Positions 10,554-62,214 of a stretch of 64,000 nt of DNA are shown here, piece by piece. The translations under genes were made by a program, and so were the position numbers. The DNA is from Minisyncoccota bacterium. Its GTDB lineage: Bacteria; Patescibacteriota; Minisyncoccia; Phycocordibacterales; UBA1006. The stretch is taken from NCBI GenBank assembly GCA_021734445.1, contig JAIPIY010000001.1:110814-174813 (forward strand). Direction: 5' to 3'. The number at the start of each line of letters is the position of its first letter. Position 1 is the first letter of the stretch. The notes beneath the pieces are model-generated. The model saw nothing but the letters and a program-made list of their open reading frames with translations, did not search any database and was not told where the DNA came from.

Positions 10554-10621
10554 ATCTTACCCTATCAGACCGTATACACGGTACCTAAAACGAAGGACCA
10601 ACAAAGTATAGCATATTTCGT

Positions 10622-15262: not shown

Positions 15263-15430
15263 ATAAAAAAATAAGTGATAAAAACGGGATTAACCTTGAA
15301 TATAGTATAGCATATATACACTCACCTGAAAAAATTGCAGACTTTTGCTGTATATGATAGGATGCTTTTGTATACATATGTTATACAAAGACCTATCTTA
15401 TAAAGGCAATAATGCTTTTAAAAAGATATT

Positions 15431-32387: not shown

Positions 32388-32633
32388 GGTTTAGTGGTTT
32401 TTTATATCATTTTGAATCTCTCTTATTTTCTCTGTTTCAATTTTTTCTCGAAACAGCCGAAGGATGCTATTTTTTGCAATCAATAAATTTGAAAATTTTT
32501 GATAAAAGTCTTTTTTTGCAGACTGTATATACTCAATATCTTTTTCACCAGCGGGCAATTGCATATCGCTAGTATATCATTTTTCTTCTTTTTCCTCTAT
32601 GCATCTTGTGTGGCTATGGTATACTGTACACAT

Positions 32634-33116
32634 ATGGAAAAAGAGTCTCGCAAACCAACATTGCTTTCTTGGAAAACTTTGGAACATGTGCACCGACCGC
32701 GTACAAAAGACTGGTACTGGGGTCTAGGTCTGACAACAATCGCTGGGATTGTAATAGCTATCTTGATTGGAAATGCACTGATTGGAGTCATGATTGTTAT
32801 TATTGCATTTACGATATTATTGTATACATTTCATCCCCCTATTACATTGAATATTGCAGTAAACGAAGATGGAATTAAAATCAATAACAAAATGTATCCT
32901 TTTGAAAATGTTCATGCATATGATATCCATGATTACAAAGAAGAAACATCTTTGTTCATTGTTTTAAAAGAAGGTATTTCTCCTTTGATTATTATTCCTA
33001 TCAATAAAGATATTATTGCTCTGGATGATATTCATGAAATATTCCAGGAATTTATTCCCCAGGAACACATGCGGACACCCTTGATTCATCAAATCATGCA
33101 TTATTTGAATATCTAA
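32634..33116 (+). CDS. Small membrane protein, hypothetical.
   Basis: Start moved to the internal ATG (MEKESRKP); 2 TM segments. Confidence 0.4.
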   Translation: MEKESRKPTLLSWKTLEHVHRPRTKDWYWGLGLTTIAGIVIAILIGNALIGVMIVIIAFTILLYTFHPPITLNIAVNEDGIKINNKMYPFENVHAYDIHDYKEETSLFIVLKEGISPLIIIPINKDIIALDDIHEIFQEFIPQEHMRTPLIHQIMHYLNI

Positions 33117-33187
33117 TCTGATATTGCTAAAATTATAAATCAATGCTATAAAATACAGGCATATCCAGGCCTTTTGCAGGATAGATC

Positions 33188-42314: not shown

Positions 42315-42659
42315 CTATTTCTTTTTAGAATCCCCACTTGATTTTGCTGCTTTTGCTGCTGCGATATCTGATTCACGTTTCTTTTGTTCAAGTTCTTTTT
42401 GCATTTTACCTCCGTGTCGTACGAATACTTTTGAAGGTGCAAATTCTCCTAATCGGTGACCAATCATATCTTCTTCTACAAGAACTTCGATATGTTTTTT
42501 ACCGTTATGAACACCAAAAGTAAATCCAACCATTTCCGGAGAAATCATTGAACTACGTGCCCAAGTTTTAACAACCCCTGTTTCTAAGGGTTTTTTTCCT
42601 TCTATTTTTGATAGAAGTTTTGCATCAATATATGGTCCTTTTTTTAAGCTTCGTGACAT
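42315..42659 (-). CDS. rpsS: 30S ribosomal protein S19 with a Lys-rich C-terminal tail.
   Basis: [12 protein letters not shown] ... [10 protein letters not shown]. Start at the internal ATG (42657-42659 confirmed). Confidence 0.85.
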
Positions 42660-42772
42660 AATGTGTATCAAAATAAAGCAAGCTCTGTATGAGCTCGCAT
42701 GTGCATAGTATCAGACTGAAAGAAAATGTCAACAGATAACCTCTGGAAAACCAAAATAGACCACAGGAATAT

Positions 42773-45700
42773 CTATTCATCAATACTGTTATTAGATTCT
42801 GCACCACTATCCTGATCTGCATCACCGGATTCCGAAGAAGAATCTGATTCGGTATTCTGTTCAGGTGATGATTCTGTTGGCGCATCATCTTGCGTCGACT
42901 GGTCTTCTGATGGGAATTCGTCAATAGTTGCATCATTAGTGTCTCCATCAGCTTCTTCTTCAATAATTAGTTCAGATTCAGAAGAATCGTTATTCTCTTC
43001 TTCTCCTTCGTCATCAGGCAACTCATCAATAATTAGTTCATCTGTATCGCCAGAATCATTTTGATTATTATTATTTGATGTATAGATAACCTGTTTTGTA
43101 GATCCATTCATCACTGATTCTAATTCGTCCCCTGTTACGCAAAAATCAGTTCCATCAGATTTTGCAACACAAATTTCTTCTGTATAAATTTCTTTTGCAA
43201 AGAATTTTTGTATCCCATTCCCCGCATCAGCAAACCAATTTCGTATACGTGAAAGAAGTGTTTCATCTGAAAGAGTTTGAATATCCATGAGTTTCAAATC
43301 CATTTCTTTAATTGCTTGTGTAATAACTGCAGTCATCTGAGCATAGTACACTGCTTTGTATCCATCTTCTCTTTCAATTACTAATTCAGGGAAATATTGT
43401 TCTAAATCTTGAGCAATGAACCCGATACGAGTTTTATTTGATTGATCACTGTTGAGAGTATATGAAACTGTTCTTACATTCAAAAGTTTAGAAAGAACAC
43501 CTGAAGATAGGTCGTTAACATTTGATTTTAATTGTTCGTCAGATGCAATAGAAGCAGAATCATACCAAGCTAAAACACCTGAACCATTTGTACCTAACAC
43601 ATAATCCATAGCACCATCTGTTGTTGGCCAATACCAATTTGTAGTACTTGATCCATCATTGTTTGTTAATATCAAACCACTCTCTTGCGCCCTAATACCA
43701 GCAGAACTATTGAGTGAAGGATCTGACCAACTTAATTGTGCATAATTACTAGCAGTAACAATAGCAGAATCTGTATTTGCACCAGCATAACTCATTGATG
43801 CAAAACCACTGTACACACCAATATTCGAAGAAAGACCACCGGGTTCGTCATATCTTAATATGGAACCACTTGAGTCTAAGAGTAACCGCCGAATATCTCC
43901 GCCTCCAAAATCAACAATACCAGAAATTGTATCATTTAAATTATTAACACTAAAACGAGTATCATCTCCAGTATAAAAAATACTATCATCATTATTCCAT
44001 GTGAAAGAATTACTTTGTGCGAGTACTCCGCCATCACCTACAAATAAAATGCTATTTGCATTAGCACTCCCAATTGTATCACCAATAGAGAGAGACCCTC
44101 CTCCACCCGGCACCCAAGTCATTATTCCTTCATCAGTAGAAGAAAGGAAATATCCACTTGCTACTGGATATGCAGTTGGCAATGTATATGTATCTCCTTG
44201 GAATTTCCATTTTGTAATTACATCAGGAATTGCAAATTCGTTTGAAACCGCTATTGCACCTGCACCAAGAGCAATTGCGTCTGAAGCAAACCATTCACCT
44301 ATGTCTGCACCTGCTCCTATTATTGTATTACCAGAACCAGAAACAAGACCAGCTCCTGCCGAATATCCATATGCAGTATTCGAACTTCCAATAGTATTAT
44401 TATATCCAGAATTATAACCAGTAAACACGTTATTAGAGCCTTCTGTATTAAAGAAACCAGCAGAAGGGCCAGAAAAGATATTATTAGAACCTTCTGTGTT
44501 TGCATAGCCAGAATGAGATCCAGAGAAGATGTTACTAGAACCAGTGGTATTTGCATTACCGGCGTTAATACCAGAAAAAATGTTCTCTGTACCTGTAGTG
44601 TTTGAATAACCCGCGTTAGTACCTAAAAAGATGTTATTAGCACTAGATGTATTTGAATGCCCAGCATTATATCCTATAAATATATTATAGTCTCCCCCGG
44701 CATTACTGTATCCCGCTTCGTAACCTTGAAAAATATTGTGACTACCTGTTGTATTCGCAGTTCCTGTATAATTTCCCAAAAAAATATTATGTACTCCCGT
44801 ATCATTTAATACCCCTGCGCCAGTTCCTACAAAAAAGTTACCGACTCCGGTCATAGTCTCATTACCAGATCGATTGTCGAATAAGTTCGTACCGAGAAGT
44901 GTAAATAAACTACCCCCACCTCCCGCTGGAGTTTCCCATGTCAAATTTCCAGAACCATCATTCGTCAGAACTTCTCCTGCACCACCCTGAGCATCTGGCA
45001 TGATCCAGTTGACACCTCGCATATTGAACTGAGTATAAGCTGGTCCAATTAAAAATTGATTTGATGCAGTATTGGTTGCTTGATATCCTAAACCGATACT
45101 GTTCGAATATCCTCCGGTTGAAGTATCATCACCAATTAATATTGAAGTGCCGATACTAGTATTATCAACAGAATCATTCAGCCCTGCATTTTCACCAATA
45201 AAAATACTATTGGCAGCATTTACTGCAGAATTACCTGCATCATATCCAATGAAAATTGACCGAAATGCAGAATACGCGGAATTACCCGCATTATATCCAA
45301 TGAAATTTGACAAATGAGCCCCTTCGGCATATTGGCCTGAACCAGCTCCTAGAAAATTAGAACCATACGCATTTTCTGCCTGATATCCTGCATATTGCCC
45401 GAGGAAGTTTGAACTTGAAGCATTCGTTGCACTGTTCCCTGCATAGACACCTAAAAAGTTTGAGTTGTTTGCGTTAGTTGCATTTTGACCAGATTGTTGT
45501 CCAAAGAAATTGGAATAAGTAGCATCAGTTGCGCCAAGACCAGCAGACCTACCAAAGAAGTTTGAGAATGACGCATTTGTTGCATCACGACCTGTTTGAT
45601 ATCCCAAAAAAACTGAATCTTGTGCGTCAGAATTTAATCCTGCTTCTAATTCTCCACCTGAAAACAAACCAAATATATTAACAAGTGAAATTGCAGATGA

Positions 45701-46741
45701 TCCTCCACCAGAAACTGCCTCCCAAGTTAAATTCCCTGAACCATCATTAGTTAAAACTGTATTAGATCCACCTTGAGTATCTGTCCAATCATAGCTCACA
45801 CCATTAATATAATGTAAATTACCAACTCCAAGATTACCTGGAACACCAACAACTCCTAATGGGTATTGACCGTAAGAGCCTAAGACAGAAAAAAGTGGAC
45901 TATCTCCATTTCCAGAATCAAGAATATTAAAAGCACTAGCATTACTTGCCCAGAAATTCATTTGCCCTCCCGAGTTAATCTGAAACAAATTACCTCCGCT
46001 AGAATTTTGTATCAATAATGGATCTACATCTTCATATGTATCAGACGTTCCTGGAACTTCTGGTGTCCCTTCGGCAAATGTTAACATATAGAAATTATCT
46101 TCGGGTTGTCCTCCAGCATCTATAACAATAGGTGAGTGTCCTGTACCGCTTGCAAAGGTAACAAAGATACCAGAAAAATCAAGATCGACGAGAGGCATGG
46201 GAACACCCGGAGTAATTTCTATCACATCATCAGGAATATCTAATCCACCACAGTTTCCTCCATAGGCAATACGATCATTAGCAAACCCATTATCTGGTGC
46301 TGTATCCCAAATACCGAAAATTAACATACAACCTTCTGGTCCATCGTATTCTCCTGAGAATGTCGCGTCTTGAAGCCCCGCACCAGTATAGTCGACACTG
46401 GCAACAGAACCTGGTGTGCCCGGAATCGTAGGAGTCCCCGGTACAAGAACCTGACCTGTTTGAATGTGTAATTGCGCCAATGGGGAATCTATACCAATAC
46501 CAACCAACCCTTCATCAAAAAATATATCAGTATCATTTGATGCAAAAGACCAAAGAGAACCACCGTCACCAATATCAATAATACAATCTGGATCAGCTGG
46601 TCCTGTACATAAATTATCTCCTACGGGATCTAAAGTTTCTCCTGGTGTAATAGCTGAAACAACAATACCTCCGTAGAGAGTAAGAGCAATGAGAAGAAAG
46701 AAAAAAATGGCGTGTTTTTTTAATGTTGTGAGTAGTTGCAT
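42773..46741 (-). CDS. Giant secreted repeat protein, paralog 1 (~1320 aa). Signal peptide; Cys-containing N-terminal motif AITPGETLDP; two blocks of 17-residue Gly/Asn-rich tandem repeats; C-terminal peptidase S74 intramolecular-chaperone autoprocessing domain; polyacidic tail.
   Basis: S74 signature ASDEQLKSNV ... IGFIAQDLEQYFPELV ... AVYYAQMTAV encoded near 43300-43546. Repeats such as SNFLGVYAGNSATNASS x7 and NNIFLGTNAGYSNTTGT x9. Start set at MQLLTTLKK (46741); the alternative ATG is at 46759. Confidence 0.8.
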   Translation of the reverse strand: MQLLTTLKKHAIFFFLLIALTLYGGIVVSAITPGETLDPVGDNLCTGPADPDCIIDIGDGGSLWSFASNDTDIFFDEGLVGIGIDSPLAQLHIQTGQVLVPGTPTIPGTPGSVASVDYTGAGLQDATFSGEYDGPEGCMLIFGIWDTAPDNGFANDRIAYGGNCGGLDIPDDVIEITPGVPMPLVDLDFSGIFVTFASGTGHSPIVIDAGGQPEDNFYMLTFAEGTPEVPGTSDTYEDVDPLLIQNSSGGNLFQINSGGQMNFWASNASAFNILDSGNGDSPLFSVLGSYGQYPLGVVGVPGNLGVGNLHYINGVSYDWTDTQGGSNTVLTNDGSGNLTWEAVSGGGSSAISLVNIFGLFSGGELEAGLNSDAQDSVFLGYQTGRDATNASFSNFFGRSAGLGATDATYSNFFGQQSGQNATNANNSNFLGVYAGNSATNASSSNFLGQYAGYQAENAYGSNFLGAGSGQYAEGAHLSNFIGYNAGNSAYSAFRSIFIGYDAGNSAVNAANSIFIGENAGLNDSVDNTSIGTSILIGDDTSTGGYSNSIGLGYQATNTASNQFLIGPAYTQFNMRGVNWIMPDAQGGAGEVLTNDGSGNLTWETPAGGGGSLFTLLGTNLFDNRSGNETMTGVGNFFVGTGAGVLNDTGVHNIFLGNYTGTANTTGSHNIFQGYEAGYSNAGGDYNIFIGYNAGHSNTSSANNIFLGTNAGYSNTTGTENIFSGINAGNANTTGSSNIFSGSHSGYANTEGSNNIFSGPSAGFFNTEGSNNVFTGYNSGYNNTIGSSNTAYGYSAGAGLVSGSGNTIIGAGADIGEWFASDAIALGAGAIAVSNEFAIPDVITKWKFQGDTYTLPTAYPVASGYFLSSTDEGIMTWVPGGGGSLSIGDTIGSANANSILFVGDGGVLAQSNSFTWNNDDSIFYTGDDTRFSVNNLNDTISGIVDFGGGDIRRLLLDSSGSILRYDEPGGLSSNIGVYSGFASMSYAGANTDSAIVTASNYAQLSWSDPSLNSSAGIRAQESGLILTNNDGSSTTNWYWPTTDGAMDYVLGTNGSGVLAWYDSASIASDEQLKSNVNDLSSGVLSKLLNVRTVSYTLNSDQSNKTRIGFIAQDLEQYFPELVIEREDGYKAVYYAQMTAVITQAIKEMDLKLMDIQTLSDETLLSRIRNWFADAGNGIQKFFAKEIYTEEICVAKSDGTDFCVTGDELESVMNGSTKQVIYTSNNNNQNDSGDTDELIIDELPDDEGEEENNDSSESELIIEEEADGDTNDATIDEFPSEDQSTQDDAPTESSPEQNTESDSSSESGDADQDSGAESNNSIDE
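44290..44820 (-). repeat. Coding tandem repeat: 51-bp units encoding the 17-aa xNIFxGxxAGxxNTxGS repeats (about 9 units).
   Basis: Periodicity read from the translation. Coordinates are approximate. Confidence 0.6.
45150..45600 (-). repeat. Coding tandem repeat: 51-bp units encoding the 17-aa xSNFxGxxAGxxATNAx repeats (about 7 units).
   Basis: Verified by back-translating 45160-45300 to IGYNAGNSAYSAFRSIFIGYDAGNSAVNAANSIFIGENAG. Confidence 0.6.
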
Positions 46742-46767
46742 ATGGTTGTAGTATAGCATGTTACTAT

Positions 46768-46801
46768 AAAAAGAAAATCCCCTATAGGGGATTTTCTTTT
46801 T
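46768..46801. terminator. Perfect hairpin AAAAAGAAAATCCCC tata GGGGATTTTCTTTTT between the rplB stop and the giant gene 1 start.
   Basis: 15-bp stem. It ends 9 nt before ATG 46759. Confidence 0.6.
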
Positions 46802-46805
46802 ATAT

Positions 46806-47642
46806 TTATCGTTTACCAGTTTTTCTTCGAGAAACAATATTTTTATTTGAGTATTTTTTAGGAGTTCTTGTTTTAACACCGTATGCTAATTTCCCATGAC
46901 GAGTTTTTGGACCACGACGTAAACCGATACCTTGACGTCCTTCTCCACCTCCGTGCGGGTGATCAACAGGGTTCATCGCAGATCCACGCACAGTAGGTCG
47001 AATACCTAACCATCGTGAACGACCAGCTTTTCCAAGATTTCGTAATTTATGTGATTCATTTGAAACTTCTCCGATAGATGCATATGATTTATCAGATACT
47101 TTTCGAATTTCAGTTGATGGCATTTTCAAGTGAGCGTACCCACGATCATGTGCAACTACCTGAGCATAGGTTCCAGCAGAACGAGCTAATTTCGAACCTC
47201 CTTGCGGTTTTAATTCAATGTTATATACAAAAGTACCTACAGAGATTTTTTCCAACGGAAGACGGTTACCTACGGTTACCGGAGCATCTTCGCTAACGAT
47301 AAATGTATCACCTACTTTCATTTTTTGTGGAATAATAACATACCGTCGTTCTCCATCGTGGTAACATACCAAAGCGATAAATGATGAACGGTTGGGATCA
47401 TATTCAACAGTTTCTATTTTTGCAGGAATATTGTGTTTATTGTACAAGAAATCAATTTCTCGATATTTTCTTTTGTGTCCACCCCCTTTGTGTGGGGTAG
47501 TAATGCGTCCTTGATTATTTCTTCCCACATGTCGTTTACCACCTTTTGTCAAAGCTTTGTGTGGTGTACGTGTTGTTAATTCGCTGTAACTTACAGTAAC
47601 TAATTGTCGACGTGATGGGGTTGTTGGTTTATATTTTTTCAT
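46806..47642 (-). CDS. rplB: 50S ribosomal protein L2.
   Basis: 278 aa, GRNNQGRITTPHKGGGHKRKYR ... SAMNPVDHPHGGGEGR. Confidence 0.95.
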   Translation of the reverse strand: MKKYKPTTPSRRQLVTVSYSELTTRTPHKALTKGGKRHVGRNNQGRITTPHKGGGHKRKYREIDFLYNKHNIPAKIETVEYDPNRSSFIALVCYHDGERRYVIIPQKMKVGDTFIVSEDAPVTVGNRLPLEKISVGTFVYNIELKPQGGSKLARSAGTYAQVVAHDRGYAHLKMPSTEIRKVSDKSYASIGEVSNESHKLRNLGKAGRSRWLGIRPTVRGSAMNPVDHPHGGGEGRQGIGLRRGPKTRHGKLAYGVKTRTPKKYSNKNIVSRRKTGKR

Positions 47643-51114: not shown

Positions 51115-51786
51115 TTAATAACCCCTACCACCATTTGGTAATTTGTTTGCATTAAGATGTGGATTTTGATGTGTCGTTGACTGATTCGTTACACCAGCAG
51201 AAGCTTTGCGCCCTTTCTCATTTCCAACTACAGTTAAAACAGTACCTGTTAGGTTTAAGGCACTTCCAGTAATTAATGCAGCATTTTGAACTTTTGGATC
51301 TTTGGAAGCTATACCAATTGCAGTTGCTATTCCACCAGCTATCTGAGTATACGTTCCAGCGGTTTTTAAGTCTTGACCAGTTTTAAGGTCTTTTTGTCTT
51401 TTTTGTTCTGCTGTCCATTGTTCTGGTGTCATTTGTACCGTATTACCAGAAGTATTAGCAGTAGACCCAGCAAATTGCCAAGAGCCATTCACCTTTACCC
51501 ACTGACCCTGAGATTGTGCTGAAGCATCTTCAATATTCCCCATAAGAGTCAATAAACCCATAAATACAGGCAAAACGATTTTTGCTCGTGATGCTAATTC
51601 TGGTGAGAATTTCAAGTTTTCAACATTTTCTCCCAATGAATCAAATTGTGATTGTAATTTTCCAAACAAAGATTGCATACTTTCTAATTTACCACCAATA
51701 AAATCTTGGATTGTTTCCATCTTATTTATAGGTATATTTTCTTGAGCTGTCTTTGGAGTTTGTTTTTTAAAGGGGTTTTCAAACAT
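51115..51786 (-). CDS. Hypothetical protein inserted between fusA and tuf (central hydrophobic segment, Gly-rich C-terminal half).
   Basis: 223-aa ORF with its own downstream terminator. Confidence 0.5.
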   Translation of the reverse strand: MFENPFKKQTPKTAQENIPINKMETIQDFIGGKLESMQSLFGKLQSQFDSLGENVENLKFSPELASRAKIVLPVFMGLLTLMGNIEDASAQSQGQWVKVNGSWQFAGSTANTSGNTVQMTPEQWTAEQKRQKDLKTGQDLKTAGTYTQIAGGIATAIGIASKDPKVQNAALITGSALNLTGTVLTVVGNEKGRKASAGVTNQSTTHQNPHLNANKLPNGGRGY

Positions 51787-51807: not shown

Positions 51808-51951
51808 TTAAACAGATTGTTCAGCTATTTCTTCTGATACTTGATCGAGAACGCTGGTAACTTCGTTAATAAATTGTTCTTTGTCTTGTTCAGATACGTT
51901 TTCTCCTGATGCAATACGGTCTGCAAGAGCTTGTAATTCTTCGTTATTCAT
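51808..51951 (-). CDS. Small acidic 47-aa ORF (MNNEELQALADRIASGENVSEQDKEQFINEVTSVLDQVSEEIAEQSV), immediately upstream of the 223-aa gene.
   Basis: Translated by hand. It is below the ORF-track size cut-off and is supported only by its position in a tight gene pair. Confidence 0.3.
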   Translation of the reverse strand: MNNEELQALADRIASGENVSEQDKEQFINEVTSVLDQVSEEIAEQSV

Positions 51952-52017
51952 GGTCTAATTTTAGCACACATTATACTCAAAAGTCAAGTCTTTTTATTCA
52001 GCTGCTGTGTATAACAC

Positions 52018-52066: not shown

Positions 52067-54220
52067 TTATCTTCGTCCAGCTCGAGATCCTGCAATATCA
52101 GCAGCAATATTCGATGGAACAACATCATATCGAGAAAATTCCATAGTAAATGAACCACGCCCTGATGTCATAGATCGAAGACTGTTCATATATCCGAACA
52201 TTTCTGACAATGGAACGGTTGCGCGAATAGCCTGAACCATACCGCGATCTTCTGAACCTTCGATTAATCCTCGCTTAGAAGAAATATCTCCTGTTACATC
52301 ACCAACGAAATCTGGCGGAACTACTACTTCGACACGCATCATAGGTTCGAGAATTACGGGACGAGCTTGTTTTGCAGCATCTTGAAATGCCTGAGAAGCA
52401 GCGATTTTAAAGGCAATTTCAGAAGAGTCTACATCATGATATGAACCATCATACAATTCAACAGAAATATCGGTCATTTGATATCCAGCAGAAACCCCTC
52501 GTTGCATTCCTTCTTTGATACCTTTTTCAACAGCAGGAATATATTCCAATGGAACAACCCCTCCTTTGATATTGTTAATGAATTCAAATCCTTCACTTCG
52601 TTTTACGTTCTTTGGTATTTTTTCCATATCAACATCTTTTTCAAGAGGTTTGATTCTGATTTTTACGTGTCCATATTGACCACGACCACCTGATTGTTTT
52701 ACATATTTATGTTCAACATCGGCATTTCCTGTAATAGTTTCTCGATACGCAACCTGTGGTTTTCCAACTGTTGCTTCTACACCAAATTCTCGCTTCATAC
52801 GATCAACCAAAATTTCAAGATGTAATTCACCCATACCTGCAATAATAGTATCCATAGTCTCTGTATCTGTTGAAACTTTGAATGTTGGATCTTCAGCAGA
52901 CAATCGAGATAATGCCATACCCATTTTTTCTTGATCTGCCTTTGTTTTTGGTTCAATCTTTAATTGTACTACTGGTTCTGGAAAATCAATACCTTCTAGT
53001 GTTACTACATGATCTTCATCACACAATGTATCTCCCGTAGTTACATCTTTTAATCCAACCGCAGCAGCAATTTCACCAGCAAATACTTGTTTTACTTCTT
53101 CTCGTTCGTTTGCATGCATACGCAAAATACGTCCGATACGTTCACGTTGTTCTGTACGAGGATTGTACACATATGAACCCGCTTCAAGAATACCAGAATA
53201 TACACGGATATAGGTTAACTGACCAACAAATGGATCTGTTTGTAATTTAAATGCTAATGCAGCAAAAGGCGCAGTATCGTCAGATGGACGTTCTACTTCT
53301 TCTTTTGTTTCTGGGTTTACCCCTTTGATTGGTGGAACATCAATAGGTGATGGAAGATAATCAATAACACCATCCAATACCAACTGTACTCCCTTGTTTT
53401 TTAGTGCTGTTCCACAGAACACAGGAACCAACTGGTTTGCAATAACAGCTTTTCGAGCAGTAGTTTTCAATTCATCCACAGTTATTTCTCCACCTTCAAG
53501 ATAACGATTCATTAATGCTTCGTCATTTTCAACGATTTTTTCAACCAATTCAGAACGATACATATCAGATTCTTCTTTGTATTCTGCAGGAATTTCGTGT
53601 TCTACAATTTGAGAACCCATTTCACCTTCAAAGGTGTATGCCTTCATGCGAATAAAATCAATTACTCCTTTCATGTTTTCTTCTTCTCCCCAAGGCATTT
53701 GAAAACGGACAGCATTTTGGGTAAGACGTTGAAGAATGGATTTGTACGCTTTTTCAAAAGAAGCTCCTGTTCGGTCTAATTTGTTAATAAAACACATACG
53801 AGGAACTTTGTATTTGTCTGCTTGACGCCAAACAGTTTCAGACTGAGGCTCCACACCAGCAACACCATCAAACACAGTTACCGCACCATCCAGAACCTTT
53901 AACGACCGTTCTACCTCTACAGTAAAGTCCACGTGACCAGGGGTGTCAATAATATTGAAACGGTGTTCTCGGTCTTTTGTTCCTGAAGTATCATATGAGG
54001 GTTTCCAGAAACAAGTAGTAGCAGCAGAAGTAATAGTAATACCTCGCTCTTGTTCTTGTTCCATCCAGTCCATGACAGCTGCACCGTCATGCACTTCACC
54101 AATTTTATGTGATACACCTGTGTAAAATAGTACACGTTCTGATGTTGTTGTTTTACCCGCATCGATGTGGGCAATAATTCCAAAGTTTCTTACTTTTTGT
54201 AGTGGATAATCTCGCTTCAT
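52067..54220 (-). CDS. fusA: Elongation factor G.
   Basis: 717 aa; [24 protein letters not shown] ... full five-domain EF-G. Confidence 0.97.
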
Positions 54221-54369
54221 AATGTATGTTCTGTTTTATGTGTTATGTTGTGTGAATAAAAAGAGCGTTCCAGCCGATACAGCGTGCATCAGAAAAGATA
54301 TCATCTTTTTGGAGCGCCCAGATAGGGTTACTATACTATATTTAGATTTTTTTGCAATCGTGTGCAAAA

Positions 54370-56787
54370 TTATTCAATACTGTCCGATTGCTCTTCTGGT
54401 GTTTCAACTGTTTCTTCTGGATCTTCGGATTCAATTTCATCTACTATTTCAGATTGTTCAACCTCATCTTCTGATTCTAAAACTTCTAGGATTTCAATTG
54501 TTGATTCTTCTTCGATCAGAGGAATATCTTCATCTGATATAGATTCTTCGTCTACAACAACATTTTCATCATTAATTATCACATCTCCTTCTTCCAAATC
54601 ATCAGAATCAGTAATAACACCTGTATGAATTAATCGTTTTAACATTTCAGCTTCTTCTTTGTCAAAACACACATTCTCTACACACAACTCTTCGGTCGTA
54701 ATCTTCTTTGCAAAGATGTTTTGAATACCGTTACCTACGTCAGCAAGGAAATCTTTAGCTAAAGTAGTTAATAATGCTAATGAAAATCCACCAGATGCAA
54801 TGGTTTGAGATTCTAAGATGGAAACCTTGAGATCTAACTCTCTAACCGCCTCTACTAATATTGGAGCCATTTGTGCATAATACACGGATTTAAATCCTTC
54901 TTCATTGGTTGCAACCAGCTCTGGGAAATATTGTTCAAGATTTTGAGCAAGAAAACCAATTTGCGGATGTGTTTCGGGTTTGTCATTCCAGTTATAGGTA
55001 ACGGTACGGAGCTGAAGAACTTTATCAAGTATGTTTGACATATCTACAATATTTGTTTTTAATCTTTCGTCAGATGAACATGCAATACCAGTGCCTGTAG
55101 TAATAATACAGTTAGTAGTAGCTGCTTGAATACGTACAGATTCAATTGAACCTGTAGCCAGGGTTGAACCAATCATGAATTGATTTGTAGCAGTGTTGGT
55201 TGCCCCTTTACCAATGGCAATGGAGTTAGAAAATCCTCCAGTAGAGGTTTCATCTCCAATGAGAATAGATGTGAAGTTTGCTGTTGAATTATTTAGTGCA
55301 AGATCTCCTGCTTGAGATCCCGCACTATTTCCAATGAAAATTGAGTTATTTGAATTAGCAGAACCAGCAACACCCACACTAAAAAAACCTGCTTTGGAAC
55401 CAATAAAAGTTGAGTTATAAGCATTAGTCGCACCTTGACCAGCTGAATTACCAAAGAAATTAGAATGCGCAGCATTAGTTGCGCTATTTCCAGCTGTGCG
55501 ACCCAAAAAATTAGAATTACTAGCATTGGTTGCACTATCACCTGCTGAGGCACCAAGGAAGTTTGAACCATTCGCGTTTGAAGCGTTTATACCTGCATTT
55601 GCACCGAAGAAGTTTGAAGAAGAAGCACTTGTTGCACTAGCTCCAGCACCAACTCCAAAGAAGTTTGATTGATATGCGTTTGTTGCATCTTGTCCTGCAC
55701 CATTACCTAGGAAGTTTGACTCAGTAGCATCTACTGCATTTTGACCAGCACCACCTCCCAAGAAGTTTACTGAGTAAACATTTGTTGCACCATTACCAGC
55801 ATTATCTCCTAAGATTATATTTCCACCACCACCTATTGTTCTTCCTTGCCCTGTACCAGAAAGTCCTGATGAATATAGAGTGTCTCCAGATGCACCAATC
55901 GTAATTGATGAAGACCCCCCAGAAACAGTAGCCCAAGAAAGTTGACCATTGCCATCTGTTTGTAATACCTGACCAAGAGCTCCATCAGCTATAGGAAAAG
56001 TATACCAATCTCCACTGAAATCAAAAGTAATACCACTATCATCCAAAGATATACTTTGGGCTCCCGTAATAGTATCTACATATAATTGTGCATATTCACT
56101 GGAAAGAGATAATTCTGATCTATCATTAGCGCCTGTATCTTCATATCTAAAAGAAGCCTCTGTTGCATCAAGTTCCATTGTTGATTCTTTATTGATTACC
56201 AGGTCAGAAAATTGAGATGCAAAACTTGTATCAGTGACATTAAATCCTGTTCGGATATTTCCTCCATCACTCAAAAGAAAGAGTGAAGCTCTTTGAGGAG
56301 CAAATAACATTGTAGAGCTTTCACCACTAGCACCTCCATAACCTACAATTGTCACATGCTCACCAAGACCAAATGCCGTCCCATCACCAACCGCAACAAA
56401 ATTTGATTCGTCAGTAGTCTCATCAACATGAACCATATTAGCACCAGGAATTGTACCATTTGCACTAATTCCCATAATAGTTAAAAAATCAGGAGCCACA
56501 CTATCAGACACCATCATAATTTCACCATTATCAAAATCATAAGTAAAACCTTCAGCAGTTGAAAGTTCACCTGCATTATTTAAAAATAAAACACTATTTG
56601 GATCTAATCCATCATACGGATTAATAGCACATCCAGAATCAGTTGGTCCAGAACACACATTGTTGTGTGTATTTACCGGATCCAATGTTTCCCCTGGCGC
56701 AATAGCAAACACAGCAAATGCAGTAAATGCGATAGAAGAGATGAGTGCACCCAGTATAGACACCTTGTAGTGTGTAGTATAAGACAT
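54370..56787 (-). CDS. Giant secreted repeat protein, paralog 2 (~805 aa). Signal peptide; AIAPGETLDP/CSGPTDSGC N-terminal motif; 17-aa xSNFxGxxAGxxATNAx repeats; peptidase S74 intramolecular-chaperone domain (CSSDERLKTNI); polyacidic tail.
   Basis: S74 signature SSDERLKTNIVDMSNILDKVLQLRTVTYNW ... IGFLAQNLEQYFPELV ... SVYYAQMAP encoded around 55053-55080. Start set at MSYTTHYK (56787); the alternative ATG is at 56805. Confidence 0.8.
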   Translation of the reverse strand: MSYTTHYKVSILGALISSIAFTAFAVFAIAPGETLDPVNTHNNVCSGPTDSGCAINPYDGLDPNSVLFLNNAGELSTAEGFTYDFDNGEIMMVSDSVAPDFLTIMGISANGTIPGANMVHVDETTDESNFVAVGDGTAFGLGEHVTIVGYGGASGESSTMLFAPQRASLFLLSDGGNIRTGFNVTDTSFASQFSDLVINKESTMELDATEASFRYEDTGANDRSELSLSSEYAQLYVDTITGAQSISLDDSGITFDFSGDWYTFPIADGALGQVLQTDGNGQLSWATVSGGSSSITIGASGDTLYSSGLSGTGQGRTIGGGGNIILGDNAGNGATNVYSVNFLGGGAGQNAVDATESNFLGNGAGQDATNAYQSNFFGVGAGASATSASSSNFFGANAGINASNANGSNFLGASAGDSATNASNSNFLGRTAGNSATNAAHSNFFGNSAGQGATNAYNSTFIGSKAGFFSVGVAGSANSNNSIFIGNSAGSQAGDLALNNSTANFTSILIGDETSTGGFSNSIAIGKGATNTATNQFMIGSTLATGSIESVRIQAATTNCIITTGTGIACSSDERLKTNIVDMSNILDKVLQLRTVTYNWNDKPETHPQIGFLAQNLEQYFPELVATNEEGFKSVYYAQMAPILVEAVRELDLKVSILESQTIASGGFSLALLTTLAKDFLADVGNGIQNIFAKKITTEELCVENVCFDKEEAEMLKRLIHTGVITDSDDLEEGDVIINDENVVVDEESISDEDIPLIEEESTIEILEVLESEDEVEQSEIVDEIESEDPEETVETPEEQSDSIE
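55370..55800 (-). repeat. Coding tandem repeat: 51-bp units encoding the 17-aa SNF/GAG/ATNA repeats (about 8 units).
   Basis: Back-translation of 55381-55440 gives GQGATNAYNSTFIGSKAGFF. Confidence 0.6.
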
Positions 56788-56816
56788 ATGAGAATAGTAT
56801 AGCATGATATCCAAAT

Positions 56817-56845
56817 AAAAAAATCCCCACTCGGGGGATTTTTTT
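56817..56845. terminator. Perfect hairpin AAAAAAATCCCC actcg GGGGATTTTTTT between the rpsG stop and the giant gene 2 start.
   Basis: 12-bp stem; same GGGGAT core as the hairpin at 46768. Confidence 0.6.
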
Positions 56846-56864
56846 ATTTGGAGTATTAATTTTC

Positions 56865-57335
56865 TTACCAAGCAAAGTGTGCAAATGCTTTGTTTGCTTC
56901 TGCCATTTTCAAAGTGTTTTCTTTTCGTTTTACTGCTTCACCTTCGTTTTTACTAGCCAAGATAATTTCATCAGACAATTTGATGTACATTGGTTGCCCT
57001 TTTTTCTTTCGAGCAGCTTCCATGATCCATCGCATAGCCAAAGCCAATCGTCGTTCTGGTCGAACTTCTCGTGGAACTTGGTAGTTTGCACCCCCAACAC
57101 GTCGTGATCGAACTTCTAGTGCAGGGCCTGCATTTTTAAAAGCCAAATCAACAACTTCTAGTGGGTTTGGGTTTTCAGATTCTTTTTTGATTCGTTCCAA
57201 AGCTTGATAGACAACAGCACGAGCTGTTTCTTTTCGCCCATCCAACATAACATAGTTAATAAGACGACCTATTTTCTGAGAATTATAGATTGAATCTGGC
57301 CCTGGAATATTTCGATTTTTTACTGGTCTTCGCAT
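56865..57335 (-). CDS. rpsG: 30S ribosomal protein S7.
   Basis: MRRPVKNRNIPGPDSIYNSQKIGRLINYVMLDGRKETARAVVYQALERI. Confidence 0.9.
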   Translation of the reverse strand: MRRPVKNRNIPGPDSIYNSQKIGRLINYVMLDGRKETARAVVYQALERIKKESENPNPLEVVDLAFKNAGPALEVRSRRVGGANYQVPREVRPERRLALAMRWIMEAARKKKGQPMYIKLSDEIILASKNEGEAVKRKENTLKMAEANKAFAHFAW

Positions 57336-59923: not shown

Positions 59924-60604
59924 TTATAACACAAGAAATGACAAAGGAATAAGATTCCCAGCAATAAGTGTGTATAAAAATACTACGACCGGCAAAAGAA
60001 GATCCCATAAAAAGAAAACAAAGAAAATCAGCATGAACATCCAGTATTTTTCAAAAAATATTCGGACCGCATTCCAATGTCTTGGAAACAATGCAAACAT
60101 AATATGGTGTCCGTCCAACGGTGGTATCGGAACCAAATTAAATACAGCCAGAACCGTATTTACAATAATAATAATTCCTGCAATTTTTAGTTCTGGAGAA
60201 ACAAAAATCTCTCCAGTCATCGAAACGGAAACAGGATCTACAATCCCGATTGCGATACCAGCATGAGCAATTAATGAAACAAAAATAGCAATTAAAATGT
60301 TAGAAACCGGCCCAGCCAATGCAACCAATGCAGGTCCATATTTTTTATTATCCAATTGATGCAAATTAAAAGGGACTGGTTTTGCCCAACCAATCAGAAA
60401 ACCAGCCTTGGTAACCACTAGTAACAAGGGAATAATAATAGAACCCCAAAGATCCAAATGTTTTATAGGGTTCAACGTCAAACGTCCCGCCATACGTGGA
60501 GTTGGGTCACCCATTGCTTCGGCTGCGTATCCATGAGACAGTTCGTGTAAAATTACTGAAAATAATAATATGAGAATGTAAAAAATGATATCAATTCCTG
60601 CCAT
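59924..60604 (-). CDS. Site-2 protease-type zinc metalloprotease (peptidase M50 family).
   Basis: ILHELSHGYAAEA HExxH plus NLVPIPPLDGHH LDG motif; 226 aa, polytopic. Confidence 0.75.
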   Translation of the reverse strand: MAGIDIIFYILILLFSVILHELSHGYAAEAMGDPTPRMAGRLTLNPIKHLDLWGSIIIPLLLVVTKAGFLIGWAKPVPFNLHQLDNKKYGPALVALAGPVSNILIAIFVSLIAHAGIAIGIVDPVSVSMTGEIFVSPELKIAGIIIIVNTVLAVFNLVPIPPLDGHHIMFALFPRHWNAVRIFFEKYWMFMLIFFVFFLWDLLLPVVVFLYTLIAGNLIPLSFLVL

Positions 60605-60705
60605 GATGAAACCAGTATACCAAAAGGTATGATGAATTACTAATACAAAATACTAATACAAACAAAAAACCACCCTCGGGTGGTTTTTTGTTTGTATTAA
60701 TTTAT

Positions 60706-62214
60706 TTAGATATTCAATCGAATAACATCTCCCCATTCACTTTCTCCCAAACTATAGCCCTGGTTAGTTTGAGTATCGACATAATCAATATCCTCGATAC
60801 CAATGACGAAACTTAGATCATACGCGATATTGTATGAGGCAACCCCATTAAATATATCTTCTGCAATTACCAAGAAATCTAATACCTCTCCATCTTCCAG
60901 TTCGTATCCTGCATTATTGTTGATGTCAAAACTAAATCCTAGTTTAGCTGGTGCACCGTTCCACCCTGGAGATACATTAACCTCTTCTTCCTCGGCAAGG
61001 ATAGTATTACCACCTGTTTCTTTCATTATTAACTCACCAAAGTGTGGAGTATTCCACAAGCTTAGGACCCCGAAATCAATTGACTCAATCTCAACCTCAT
61101 CACCACAATCATTTTCAATAGTGAATCTACCGAGAACAGGCTCACTACTATTCATAATCCATTCTGTCGCACTATTTTGATTTGAAATATGAGTAACCTC
61201 TAGACATTCATTATCCATAGAAGAATTTTGTGATGCATTGATGGTGAACCTACTATCTGAGTAATCATCAACTGCACCATATTGCAAACCAGTATCAATA
61301 TCTATTACTTGTATCTGATATTCTTTTAATCCTGAAGGATATGGAAATGTTGAATTCCAAATATTAGTTGCAGGCAAAGTAATCACTGCTACTCCATTAT
61401 TTACTGGTATTGGATTTGAATTTAACCAACCTGTGGTCATATTCCCCGGAGCCACCGTATTACTATTTGGGGTTTCTTGAATAACAGATACTGGAATATA
61501 CACAAGCTGTATTGCAACACGATGATTTGCTAGCACATTACAATTTGTCCACTTTACTGTAACCTGCTGGCCTGCAGTATATGTTTCCCCACCATTTGGA
61601 GAAGTAACTTTTATCCGAGGAGCTGAATTTGGTAAACAAAGAGTTTGTGGCAAGACAGGTTGAATAGTAATTCCTCCACCTACCGGCATTGAAGGTGCTG
61701 TGGATGTAGTGGTAGTAGTGGTAGTAGTACCACCTGATTTAGTATAACCCGATTCCCCCCAAGATGTTCCCCAGCTATTATTCATCACACTGATTGTATT
61801 TTTTCCTAACAAACCATCTGCATGAAGTTTATGTGCTGTTTGAAATTGAGAAACAGCCAAAAAGGTAGCCTTGTCATATGTTCCTGGCATATATGATCCG
61901 GATTTAAGAAATCCTAACTTCTCGAGCAATTTTTGTGCTCCAGCTACTTCTACTCCCACAGTATCAGGGCGTAATGTTGCTGAAATAGACAAAGGTTTTA
62001 TCTCTGACGCAGTAGTTACCGATGCTTGTGTTGTAGCTGTAGTATTTACTGTAGTCGCTGATCGTGAAGCTAAACCAGCTAACTGAGTACGAATACTTTC
62101 GATTTGATTAATGATGTTTTGTAATAGTGACGTATCTGTGTTTGCTGAAGCAAATGATATTCCTGAGAAGATGAACGTGAATACGAGAACAGAGGTGATA
62201 AGATATTTTTTCAT
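60706..62214 (-). CDS. Secreted protein with a peptidoglycan-binding domain, a poly-Thr linker and a C-terminal beta-rich domain.
   Basis: Signal peptide; QKLLEKLGFLKSGSYMPGTYDKATFLAVSQFQTAHKLHADGLLG; TTTTTTTTST linker. Confidence 0.5.
   Translation of the reverse strand: MKKYLITSVLVFTFIFSGISFASANTDTSLLQNIINQIESIRTQLAGLASRSATTVNTTATTQASVTTASEIKPLSISATLRPDTVGVEVAGAQKLLEKLGFLKSGSYMPGTYDKATFLAVSQFQTAHKLHADGLLGKNTISVMNNSWGTSWGESGYTKSGGTTTTTTTTSTAPSMPVGGGITIQPVLPQTLCLPNSAPRIKVTSPNGGETYTAGQQVTVKWTNCNVLANHRVAIQLVYIPVSVIQETPNSNTVAPGNMTTGWLNSNPIPVNNGVAVITLPATNIWNSTFPYPSGLKEYQIQVIDIDTGLQYGAVDDYSDSRFTINASQNSSMDNECLEVTHISNQNSATEWIMNSSEPVLGRFTIENDCGDEVEIESIDFGVLSLWNTPHFGELIMKETGGNTILAEEEEVNVSPGWNGAPAKLGFSFDINNNAGYELEDGEVLDFLVIAEDIFNGVASYNIAYDLSFVIGIEDIDYVDTQTNQGYSLGESEWGDVIRLNI

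Follow-up and report, generated by a model that had tools for sequence, protein, structure and literature searches.

Why do two genes for tail-fibre-like proteins stand between ribosomal genes in the genome of a Patescibacterium, and what might their products do? The question is raised by the DNA shown above, 64,000 nucleotides (nt) from a Minisyncoccota bacterium (assembly GCA_021734445.1), which we call the window at its full length. Fibre gene A lies there between rpsG and fusA, and a larger fibre gene, B, lies between rplB and rpsS. A first-pass annotation made from the sequence alone had recognised gene A at this position as a paralog of the larger gene, and had read the pair as a duplicated cassette that includes its 5' control region. 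Our analysis bears out the paralogy and speaks against the cassette. Instead, we favour, with a probability of about 0.68, the reading that A and B are secreted, phage-tail-fibre-like surface fibres of Ca. Paceibacteria (Patescibacteria, or candidate phyla radiation, CPR), which form leaderless transcription units of their own in pre-existing gaps and bind a host or partner cell.

Two paralogous fibre genes among ribosomal genes

The whole region is encoded on the minus strand. Read in that direction, rpsL (57815-57372) and rpsG are followed by gene A and fusA, then by an open reading frame (ORF) of 47 amino acids (aa), an unknown 223-aa ORF, tuf, rpsJ, rplC, rplD, rplW and rplB; gene B comes next, followed by rpsS, rplV, rpsC and rplP (Table 1). 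Protein A is 100% identical to NCBI MCF7831440.1, from a metagenome-assembled genome (MAG) of Ca. Pacebacteria/Paceibacterota in which it lies on a 252-kb contig, and an exact look-up identified protein B as MCF7831430.1; NCBI names both 'tail fiber domain-containing protein'. The lengths of 833 and 1368 aa given at first pass are those of mechanically called ORFs extending back into the upstream genes rpsG and rplB; the real proteins have 805 and 1322 aa. The shared protein features described there hold. A third paralog of the family (P0009) is encoded on the same contig, outside the window.

BLASTP alignment of the two proteins revealed significant similarity at the N-terminus (44% identity over 68 aa, E 2e-11), in the repeat region (42% over 349 aa, E 7e-50) and in the S74 domain together with the segment that follows it (36% over 239 aa, E 9e-40). 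By this similarity, A and B are paralogous. They have no long near-identical DNA in common, and would therefore be old paralogs rather than the products of recent copying. As the first-pass annotation had listed, both carry the N-terminal motif (AIAPGETLDP in A, AITPGETLDP in B), the 17-aa (51-nt) tandem repeats, the S74 motif (CSSDERLKTNI and ASDEQLKSNV), and a post-S74 segment (GNGIQNIFAKKITTEELCV and GNGIQKFFAKEIYTEEICV) with an acidic tail.

Domain architecture of the fibre proteins

As judged from the sequence, the N-terminus of A has a single Lys (n-region), a hydrophobic core of 20 residues and a VFA|I site. These features are kept across the family, whose consensus is VFA-xxP...PGxTLDPxCxPGDxxC. 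Beyond it lies the repeat shaft. The tail fiber protein family phrog_5668 (PHROG) matches A over residues 296-661 (E 1.4e-25), covering shaft and chaperone, and on this profile similarity the 17-aa-repeat shaft is homologous to phage tail-fibre shafts. In the AlphaFold2 model of A, shaft and S74 domain are confident.

The S74 domain is C-terminal to the shaft. PF13884 (Pfam Peptidase_S74) scored 64.3 bits in A and 54.4 bits in B against a cut-off of 22, and it was the only Pfam family found in either protein, even at E values up to 10; an NCBIfam search of the fibre proteins matched no model. The catalytic motif SDxxxK, as defined in PMC10769870, reads S572-D-E-R-L-K577 in A and SDEQLK in B, with S572, D573 and K577 invariant across 78 homologs. 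PDB profile matches of A comprise the solved chaperone domains 8jov, 6f45 and 3gud.

Unlike the matched phage proteins, A and B continue for 140-250 residues beyond the S74 domain. This extension contains the conserved pattern W.GD..NGI...FAK.I.T..LCV...C, in which N125, G126, I127 and C141 (numbering of alignment A2) are nearly invariant and C146 is invariant. No PDB, PHROG or viral-contig match extends past the end of the chaperone (~residue 661) into the extension of A, nor did the N-terminal signal peptide region of A have a PHROG or viral-contig match. Judged by these searches, only the cellular family has the post-chaperone Cys segment with its acidic tail. Neither Pfam nor the AlphaFold2 model of A revealed a recognisable binding domain at the fibre tip.

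Fibre genes recur at ribosomal junctions of related genomes

We scanned one genome per species with a C-terminal profile and kept the best 80 matches to a ribosome-linked query, which gave 78 family loci (L-numbers below) in 51 genomes. Within 6 kb of str or S10 genes lie 17 of the 78 loci, from 16 of the 51 genomes, and every one of these is co-oriented with the ribosomal genes. The linked copies fall at four junctions: between rpsG and fusA (the window, L003/L005, L036, L038), after fusA or before tuf (L018, L045, L017, L035), upstream of rpsL (L073, L011, L020, L021, L034, L006, L012, L075), and between rplB and rpsS or before rpsS (the window, L004/L043, L001/L002, L028). Measured against a rough chance expectation of 3-5%, this linkage has a p of ~1e-10 to 3e-7. 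As in the window, both rpsG-fusA and rplB-rpsS are occupied in GCA_964489785.1. Among the loci kept, a genome holds up to 4 paralogs.

The comparison with GCA_964489785.1 also suggests how the fibre genes change. Between the two genomes, identity is 86-93% for the flanking DNA and 95-100% for the ribosomal proteins; the flank identity continues over the first ~200 nt of each fibre gene and resumes in the last ~650 nt of B. The centres of the fibre genes align only in patches, at 65-82% (A) and 65-76% (B), or cannot be aligned. Modules are also found in new combinations: P0022, at rplB-rpsS, has an A-type N-terminus, and P0008 joins an A-type N-terminus to a B-type C-terminus. In a neighbour-joining tree of the 150-aa C-terminal module, a short domain for which the tree carries no support values, the ribosome-linked copies do not form one group. 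A hypervariable centre combined with mosaic modules is the pattern expected of receptor-binding proteins; it suggests, without proving it, that alleles are exchanged through the conserved flanks.

A separate observation concerns the module junctions, where the motif Y/W-x-x-P-x(3)-G-x(2)-G-x-V/L-L-x(3)-G-x-G-x-L-x-W-x(4)-GG, kept in the family consensus, occurs four times in B (~320-350, 575-610, 880-910 and 1040-1060) and once in A (~265-295). It may delimit exchangeable fibre segments.

Hairpins upstream of the fibre genes

The hairpins with a GGGGAT core that had been noted before both fibre genes are real. They are perfect, with stems of 18-19 bp, and begin 12 nt past the rpsG stop and 1 nt past the rplB stop. 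Each is built from an A-run, a C/G core (CCCCC/GGGG in the rpsG hairpin) and a U-run, so that rpsG and rplB each end in the stable GC-cored hairpin and U-run typical of a terminator. Rfam, at its gathering threshold, found tRNAs only in the window, and nothing for hairpins or leaders. The ATCCCC..GGGGAT core is limited to these two hairpins in the window (2 observed, 0.01 expected), and 61 nt upstream of and including the start are 72% identical, without gaps, between the A and B loci. Taken alone, these two results would favour the proposal that a single block of hairpin, promoter and fibre gene was copied into both ribosomal operons.

Relatives suggest otherwise. In L020, L073 and L034, where no fibre gene stands between rpsG and fusA, a hairpin directly follows rpsG, and after it come a TTGCAA-17-TAtAnT promoter and a structured fusA leader that ends in a U-run. 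The L020 hairpin (aaaaaaatcccc-atct-ggggatttttttt) has almost the window sequence, and those of L073 and L034 are similar. Likewise, a terminator lies 3' of rplB in L017 and L035, where the S10 cluster is broken; in L017 a different gene comes next. Conversely, the fibre gene before rpsS in L001 has a phosphoglucomutase gene as its upstream neighbour and begins with TGTTATTAT, 6 nt and ATG, and inspection of its sequence found no obvious upstream hairpin. The A-run/C4-loop-G4/U-run hairpin is, moreover, a generic terminator shape in these AT-rich genomes.

Because relatives without an intervening fibre gene keep the rpsG hairpin and the fusA promoter, the hairpins appear to be intrinsic terminators of rpsG and rplB and not parts of the fibre genes. 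If these terminators were there beforehand, the fibre genes would therefore occupy existing terminator-promoter gaps and not represent a copied cassette. The same comparisons indicate that in this lineage the str and S10 'operons' are already broken up into short units, each bounded by a terminator, and that the fibre genes sit in the gaps. The order of terminator, extended -10 element, short spacer and ATG is found before the fibre genes of L003, L004, L038 and L045; in L018 hairpin and -10 element are present and the spacer to the nearest ATG is longer.

One locus does speak for the earlier proposal. In L003 (GCA_964489785.1; 4983-8434), two fibre genes stand in tandem after rpsG and the second has an identical copy of hairpin and promoter, so local duplication can, by this example, carry the 5' region along. 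The contig ends inside the second gene. Fibre repeats thus appear to break assemblies, and fibre counts in MAGs are probably underestimated.

Further fragments resembling the 3' end of rpsG lie past the rpsG terminator in two relatives, inverted in L020 (9470-9560) and as a direct partial copy ending ...tttgcttggtaa in L036 (2080-2200). These may be scars of rearrangement at the junction.

Promoters and start codons of the fibre genes

The shared 5' string ATGCTATACTA is, as first described, exact at both fibre genes (56795-56805 in A, 46749-46759 in B), but it is not unique to them. A third exact copy (15303-15313, minus strand) lies 41 nt 5' of an unrelated gene and a copy with one mismatch (10604-10614, minus strand) lies ~50 nt 5' of tRNA-Arg. 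The element TGCTATACT within it is found at these sites also (15304-15312 and 10605-10613), and a related element, TGCTAAAAT, occurs at 33125-33133, ~50 nt before a tRNA gene. Since TGCTATACT also precedes an unrelated gene and tRNA genes, it behaves, to judge from its distribution, as a general promoter; it fits the extended -10 consensus TGnTATAAT. We therefore read ATGCTATACTA as the consensus extended -10 promoter of this genome (TGnTATAMT), and the string shared by A and B as a reflection of that consensus rather than of a copied cassette.

The arrangement of promoter and start codon points to genes beyond the fibres. The window holds 9 sites at which TGnTAWAMT precedes an ATG by 6-9 nt, compared with 1.9 +/- 1.4 expected from dinucleotide shuffles, and 5 of the 9 are starts of long genes (17811, 59914, 60604, 56787 and 46741). 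TATAAT-like boxes lie 6-8 nt 5' of the ATG at further genes in the window, where a Shine-Dalgarno-like motif, even a weak one, was seen at only 1 of 74 gene starts. The scarcity of such motifs and the roughly 5-fold enrichment of the extended -10/ATG spacing suggest widespread leaderless or Shine-Dalgarno-independent initiation in the genome.

For the fibre genes themselves, the suggestion that TATACT is a -10 box placing the second ATG as a leaderless or near-leaderless start gains support from this spacing enrichment and from the starts of NCBI and of orthologs. NCBI starts both proteins at the second ATG, and the orthologs P0005, P0008, P0019 and P0022 begin MS(Y/H)T.HYKVSI, at the same residue as A. 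The earlier reading of MLYY(N/S)HM as the start of the proteins is not upheld: L038 (TGATAAAAT, 6 nt, ATG) and L045 (TGATATACT, 8 nt, ATG) have no in-frame ATG before the -10 element. The upstream in-frame codons would be a by-product, because the A and the TG of the -10 element stand at a fixed spacing, and MLYY(N/S)HM is probably not translated. The mRNAs of A and B are probably leaderless, the 8-nt spacer implying a leader of 0-2 nt.

A divergent pair of extended -10 elements was also seen at 32562-32634, with TGATATACT, 6 nt and ATG (57-aa ORF) on the minus strand and TGGTATACT, 8 nt and ATG (160-aa ORF) on the plus strand. From its sequence it looks like a divergent leaderless promoter pair.

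Elements between the fibre genes and fusA or rpsS

Both genes downstream of the fibres have candidate promoters of their own. TTGCAA-17-TAtAnT is kept before fusA in L073, L034, L020 and L036, and in L036, which also has a fibre gene between rpsG and fusA, the promoter comes after the fibre gene stop. The fusA genes of relatives are also preceded by leaders with a hairpin and U-run (promoter and structured leader at L073 7760-7890, L034 12060-12190, L020 9640-9760 and L036 6670-6770). By its sequence, this layout, kept in four relatives, is a candidate for a fusA attenuator or leader in Paceibacteria.

Before rpsS, promoter and hairpin have counterparts in L004 (9120-9190) and in L001 (8560-8640), where the changes preserve pairing. 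The promoter ends 6 nt before the hairpin, and the rpsS transcript would therefore begin at the first base of the stem. This hairpin could terminate read-through from the fibre gene, or act as a 5' stabiliser or an attenuator.

Comparison with known fibres and surface loci

The closest analogues that we identified are the MAT (mosaic adhesive trimer) fibres of Bdellovibrio bacteriovorus, in particular their S74 subgroup (e.g. Bd3182), which are likewise chromosomal and not phage genes. According to PMC10769870, MAT proteins combine a signal peptide and a conserved N-terminal domain with a long trimeric fibre and an S74 domain that carries SDxxxK; experiments have proven that they cleave themselves and lie at the cell surface, and a role in handling prey is proposed. 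Set beside that description, A and B have a putative signal peptide, a conserved N-terminal motif, a repeat-built phage-type fibre and a C-terminal S74 domain with SDxxxK. In both cases, too, a genome holds many mosaic paralogs and its bearer lives on other cells. In a Foldseek search of the PDB, the best match of the A model, though weak, is also a MAT fibre, Bd2133 (8OND; probability 0.93, E 1.9e-3). We detected no sequence similarity between A or B and the solved MAT fragments. The N-terminal module here is a short PGETLDP/Cys-pair motif, in a region of A with a model confidence (pLDDT) below 70, and may not correspond to the ~130-aa beta-rich domain of MAT fibres. The two groups differ in the ~140-250 extra residues past the chaperone (the NGI..LCV..C segment and the acidic tail). 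In addition, the function of the fibres described here is a prediction.

Phage fibres and tailspikes with a chaperone (K1F endosialidase 3GW6, GA-1 gp12 3GUD, S16 gp37 6F45, and 8JOV) have the S74 Ser-Lys motif after the shaft, as do A and B. To our knowledge, phage chaperone domains sit at the extreme C-terminus and phage fibres carry no signal peptide. Alignments with the phage proteins end at the chaperone, whereas the present proteins have an extension, a putative signal peptide, cellular neighbours and a position conserved across species. Trimeric autotransporter adhesins of the YadA/Hep_Hag type likewise have short Gly/Ala/Asn-rich repeats; some homologs have a precomputed PF05658 match, and JGI names some 'trimeric autotransporter adhesin'. 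However, a Pfam search with E values up to 10 gave no family of this class in either protein, PF05658 and outer-membrane anchor domains included, and assembly here would use S74 and not a beta-barrel translocator. Patescibacteria are, as far as we know, not thought to have a classical outer membrane. Finally, capsule or O-antigen loci are variable surface-antigen loci between conserved housekeeping flanks, and the fibre loci likewise have a hypervariable centre between flanks that are 86-93% identical. Here, however, the flanks encode ribosomal proteins, the variable unit is a single fibre gene, and exchange by recombination would be hypothetical.

Proposed mechanism and alternatives

In the scheme that we infer, rpsG and rplB transcripts would end at their own hairpins, and each fibre gene would be its own transcription unit, driven by the extended -10 element TGCTATACT and translated from the second ATG on an mRNA that is leaderless or has a 1-2-nt leader. 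Some transcription would read through into the fusA and rpsS leaders, which hold elements of a hairpin plus U-run, with fusA and rpsS restarted by separate sigma-70-type promoters. The protein would be exported by its Sec-type signal peptide, leaving the PGETLDP/Cys-pair module proximal to the cell, and the 17-aa-repeat shaft would trimerise with the aid of the C-terminal S74 intramolecular chaperone. The chaperone would then cleave the chain at the serine of SDxxxK (Ser572 in A), which would shed the chaperone together with the Cys-pair segment and the acidic tail and expose the distal tip, and the fibre would project from the cell. As MAT and phage receptor-binding fibres would suggest, the target of binding would be the surface of another cell, either a host or a partner. 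The same analogy makes it most likely that A and B are trimeric, self-processing fibres on the cell surface that serve to bind another cell.

Several points weigh against this scheme. The role as adhesins is argued by analogy only, and it was by eye that the N-termini of A and B were judged to fit a Sec signal peptide with a conserved module, proximal to the cell, after it. The AlphaFold2 model of A is of a monomer with a mean pLDDT of 67, in which the N-terminal 200 residues are poorly modelled, and the 8OND match obtained with it has a TM score of only 0.09-0.16. Codon adaptation of A and B to the ribosomal-gene set (0.68 and 0.67, 8th and 10th among 34 non-reference genes) is middling; it is not informative on expression and gives no independent sign of very high expression. 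The linkage enrichment relies on a rough expectation, on query-similar loci and on fragmentary MAG contigs. As for expression, a canonical start 7 nt past the -10 element would give a leader of 2 nt and not of zero, and termination efficiency, transcription start and leaderless translation are all predicted from sequence. A fold scan found a convincing terminator of its own for neither fibre gene; some transcripts are therefore likely to run on into the leaders of fusA and rpsS, and partial co-transcription of the fibre genes with ribosomal genes is plausible.

How far could other explanations account for the same data? That the fibres share the architecture described here and serve another purpose, as a surface coat, a scaffold between cells or within a matrix, or a phage decoy, strikes us as doubtful, though not far-fetched: there are many paralogs per genome, a coat protein could have such acidic tails and repeats, and no tip binding domain was recognised. 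The hypervariable centre between near-identical flanks and the mosaic modules are, however, typical of diversifying receptor-binding proteins, and the nearest characterised cellular analogues are adhesins. Less probable still is an operon-embedded arrangement, in which the hairpins would be weak attenuators and the fibre genes would mainly be read through from the strong ribosomal promoters, starting at the first ATG or internally, with their output coupled to ribosome synthesis. The co-orientation of every ribosome-linked family member, the lack of a clear terminator 3' of either fibre gene and a linkage that recurs at four junctions all fit this arrangement; the long, perfect hairpins with U-runs and an extended -10 element correctly spaced from the annotated start do not. 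More distant orthologs, furthermore, do not keep the first ATG, and in a genome with almost no Shine-Dalgarno-like motifs the signals for internal initiation would be unclear.

The duplicated or mobile cassette we consider improbable. The upstream identity, the shared hairpin core and the tandem copy in L003 are outweighed by fibre-free junctions that keep the rpsG hairpin and fusA promoter, by the terminator after rplB in L017 and L035, by the differing upstream gene and missing hairpin of L001, by an 11-mer that is a general promoter consensus, and by the lack of any sign of a recent copy. As to an origin as a prophage remnant, that is, tail-fibre genes left by or captured from a phage integrated in the ribosomal cluster, the NCBI names and the match of PHROG tail-fibre families to shaft and S74 domain might invite it, and we nevertheless rejected it as very improbable. 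The neighbours are rpsG, fusA, rplB and rpsS, with tuf and S10-operon genes between A and B and no adjacent phage gene; GC content is flat at ~37% throughout the region that holds the fibre genes; and the position is kept in several species, with the same gene order in relatives. Phage records match A only at the shaft and S74 domain (residues 411-699), at 29-46% identity and covering at most 31% of the protein, and signal peptide and C-terminal extension match no PHROG family or viral contig.

A bolder extension of the surface-fibre reading is tentative, and we hold it to be possible rather than likely. The breakpoints of the ribosomal clusters in Paceibacteria would be conserved docking sites for hypervariable host-recognition fibre genes, whose alleles would be swapped through the near-invariant flanks by homologous recombination, for instance after natural DNA uptake, and leaky terminators together with co-orientation would tie fibre output to ribosome synthesis.

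Feature coordinates and further observations

Table 1. Positions of the fibre genes, their neighbours and associated elements in the window
Feature	Position	Strand	Remarks
Fibre gene A	54370..56787	-	805 aa + stop; start at second ATG, 8 nt past the -10 element
Fibre gene B	42773..46741	-	1322 aa + stop; start at second ATG (46741), 8 nt past the -10 element
rpsG (ribosomal protein S7), 5' neighbour of A	56865..57335	-	Pfam Ribosomal_S7, E 1.5e-51
fusA (elongation factor G, EF-G), 3' neighbour of A	52067..54220	-	Pfam GTP_EFTU, EFG_III, EFG_IV, EFG_C
rplB (L2), 5' neighbour of B	46806..47642	-	Pfam Ribosomal_L2_N, Ribosomal_L2_C
rpsS (S19), 3' neighbour of B	42315..42659	-	Pfam Ribosomal_S19; ATG 42659; orthologs 114 aa
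Putative signal peptide / N-terminal anchor of A, residues 1-28	56704..56787	-	MSYTTHYK + 20 hydrophobic residues, ...VFA|IAPGETLDP
17-aa SNFxGxxAGxxATNAxx tandem repeats (51 nt), shaft of A	55298..55821	-	pLDDT 89-98 at residues 330-460
Peptidase_S74 core of A, residues 572-625	54913..55074	-	Pfam E 1.2e-17; Ser572 codon 55074-55072, Lys577 five residues on
S74 core of B	43379-43543	-	Pfam E 1.5e-14
Post-chaperone segment GNGIQNIFAKKITTEELCVENVC of A, residues 685-707	54667..54735	-	two conserved Cys; family alignment
Acidic low-complexity C-terminal tail of A, residues ~725-805	54373..54615	-	29 of the last 60 residues D/E; pLDDT <50
Intrinsic-terminator-like hairpin of rpsG	56810..56852	-	19 bp, dG -26.2 kcal/mol, z -6.8, U7 tail
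Intrinsic-terminator-like hairpin of rplB	46765..46804	-	18 bp, dG -23.6 kcal/mol, z -8.2, U4CU5 tail
Extended -10 element TGCTATACT of A	56796..56804	-	in-frame ATG 56805-56803 = preceding base + TG of the element
Extended -10 element TGCTATACT of B	46750..46758	-	motif scan
Predicted fusA promoter TTGCAA-16-TATAGT	54330..54357	-	directly past the gene A stop
Structured fusA leader ending in U-run	54255..54319	-	z -2.5 for the whole spacer
Predicted rpsS promoter TTGACA-16-TACTAT with TG	42705..42732	-	past the gene B stop; kept in L004, L001
Hairpin GCGAGCUC-AUACA-GAGCUUGC + UUUAUUUU	42670..42698	-	between rpsS promoter and rpsS ATG (42659)

Three further features of the window were seen away from the fibre genes. 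The 223-aa ORF between fusA and tuf (51115-51786, minus strand) has no family match and is 54% identical to its counterpart in GCA_964489785.1. Next to it, the acidic 47-aa ORF (MNNEELQALADRIASGENV...) has a TTGACT-18-TAAAAT (TG) promoter that ends 6 nt before it, at 51808-51987 (minus strand, promoter included). At 60604-60706 (minus strand), an inverted repeat with a CCACCC/GGGTGG core and 29-nt arms that are 90% complementary stands before TGGTATACT, which is separated by 9 nt from an ATG. The order of terminator, promoter and predicted leaderless start thus equals that at the fibre genes. The gene that starts there, at 60604, encodes 226 aa, is unrelated to the fibres, and has a Peptidase_M50 gene as its syntenic counterpart in L003.

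Implications

Annotation of the protein at the level of its domains and cellular S74 fibres in Bdellovibrio were already known. What is new is a Patescibacterial variant with an N-terminal PGETLDP module and an extension past the chaperone, the recurrence of its genes, always co-oriented, at four breakpoints of the ribosomal clusters, the hypervariable fibre centre between conserved ribosomal flanks and, as predicted for this genome, a Shine-Dalgarno-free leaderless promoter layout. A literature search found no paper that ties Patescibacteria to S74 or tail-fibre proteins, and none on leaderless or Shine-Dalgarno-free starts in Patescibacteria or on the placement or hypervariability of such fibres. 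These results offer a useful lead on host recognition in CPR bacteria rather than a demonstrated new mechanism.

The most conserved bacterial operons are, in this lineage, apparently cut into short terminator-bounded units with starts that lack Shine-Dalgarno motifs and are, by prediction, often leaderless, and this matters for gene calling and for models of expression. In practical terms, fibre genes can be found even in fragmentary MAGs through the rpsL-rpsG-fusA-tuf and rplB-rpsS junctions. If the more speculative docking-site idea were true, the ribosomal cluster would also serve as the locus that sets the host range of these symbionts. Outside Saccharibacteria, little is known of how ultra-small CPR/Patescibacteria find and hold their hosts. 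The placement in ribosomal clusters, recurring as it does in relatives, likely marks these fibres as host-attachment proteins, and with the architecture of receptor-binding fibres the family offers concrete candidates for the determinants of host range.

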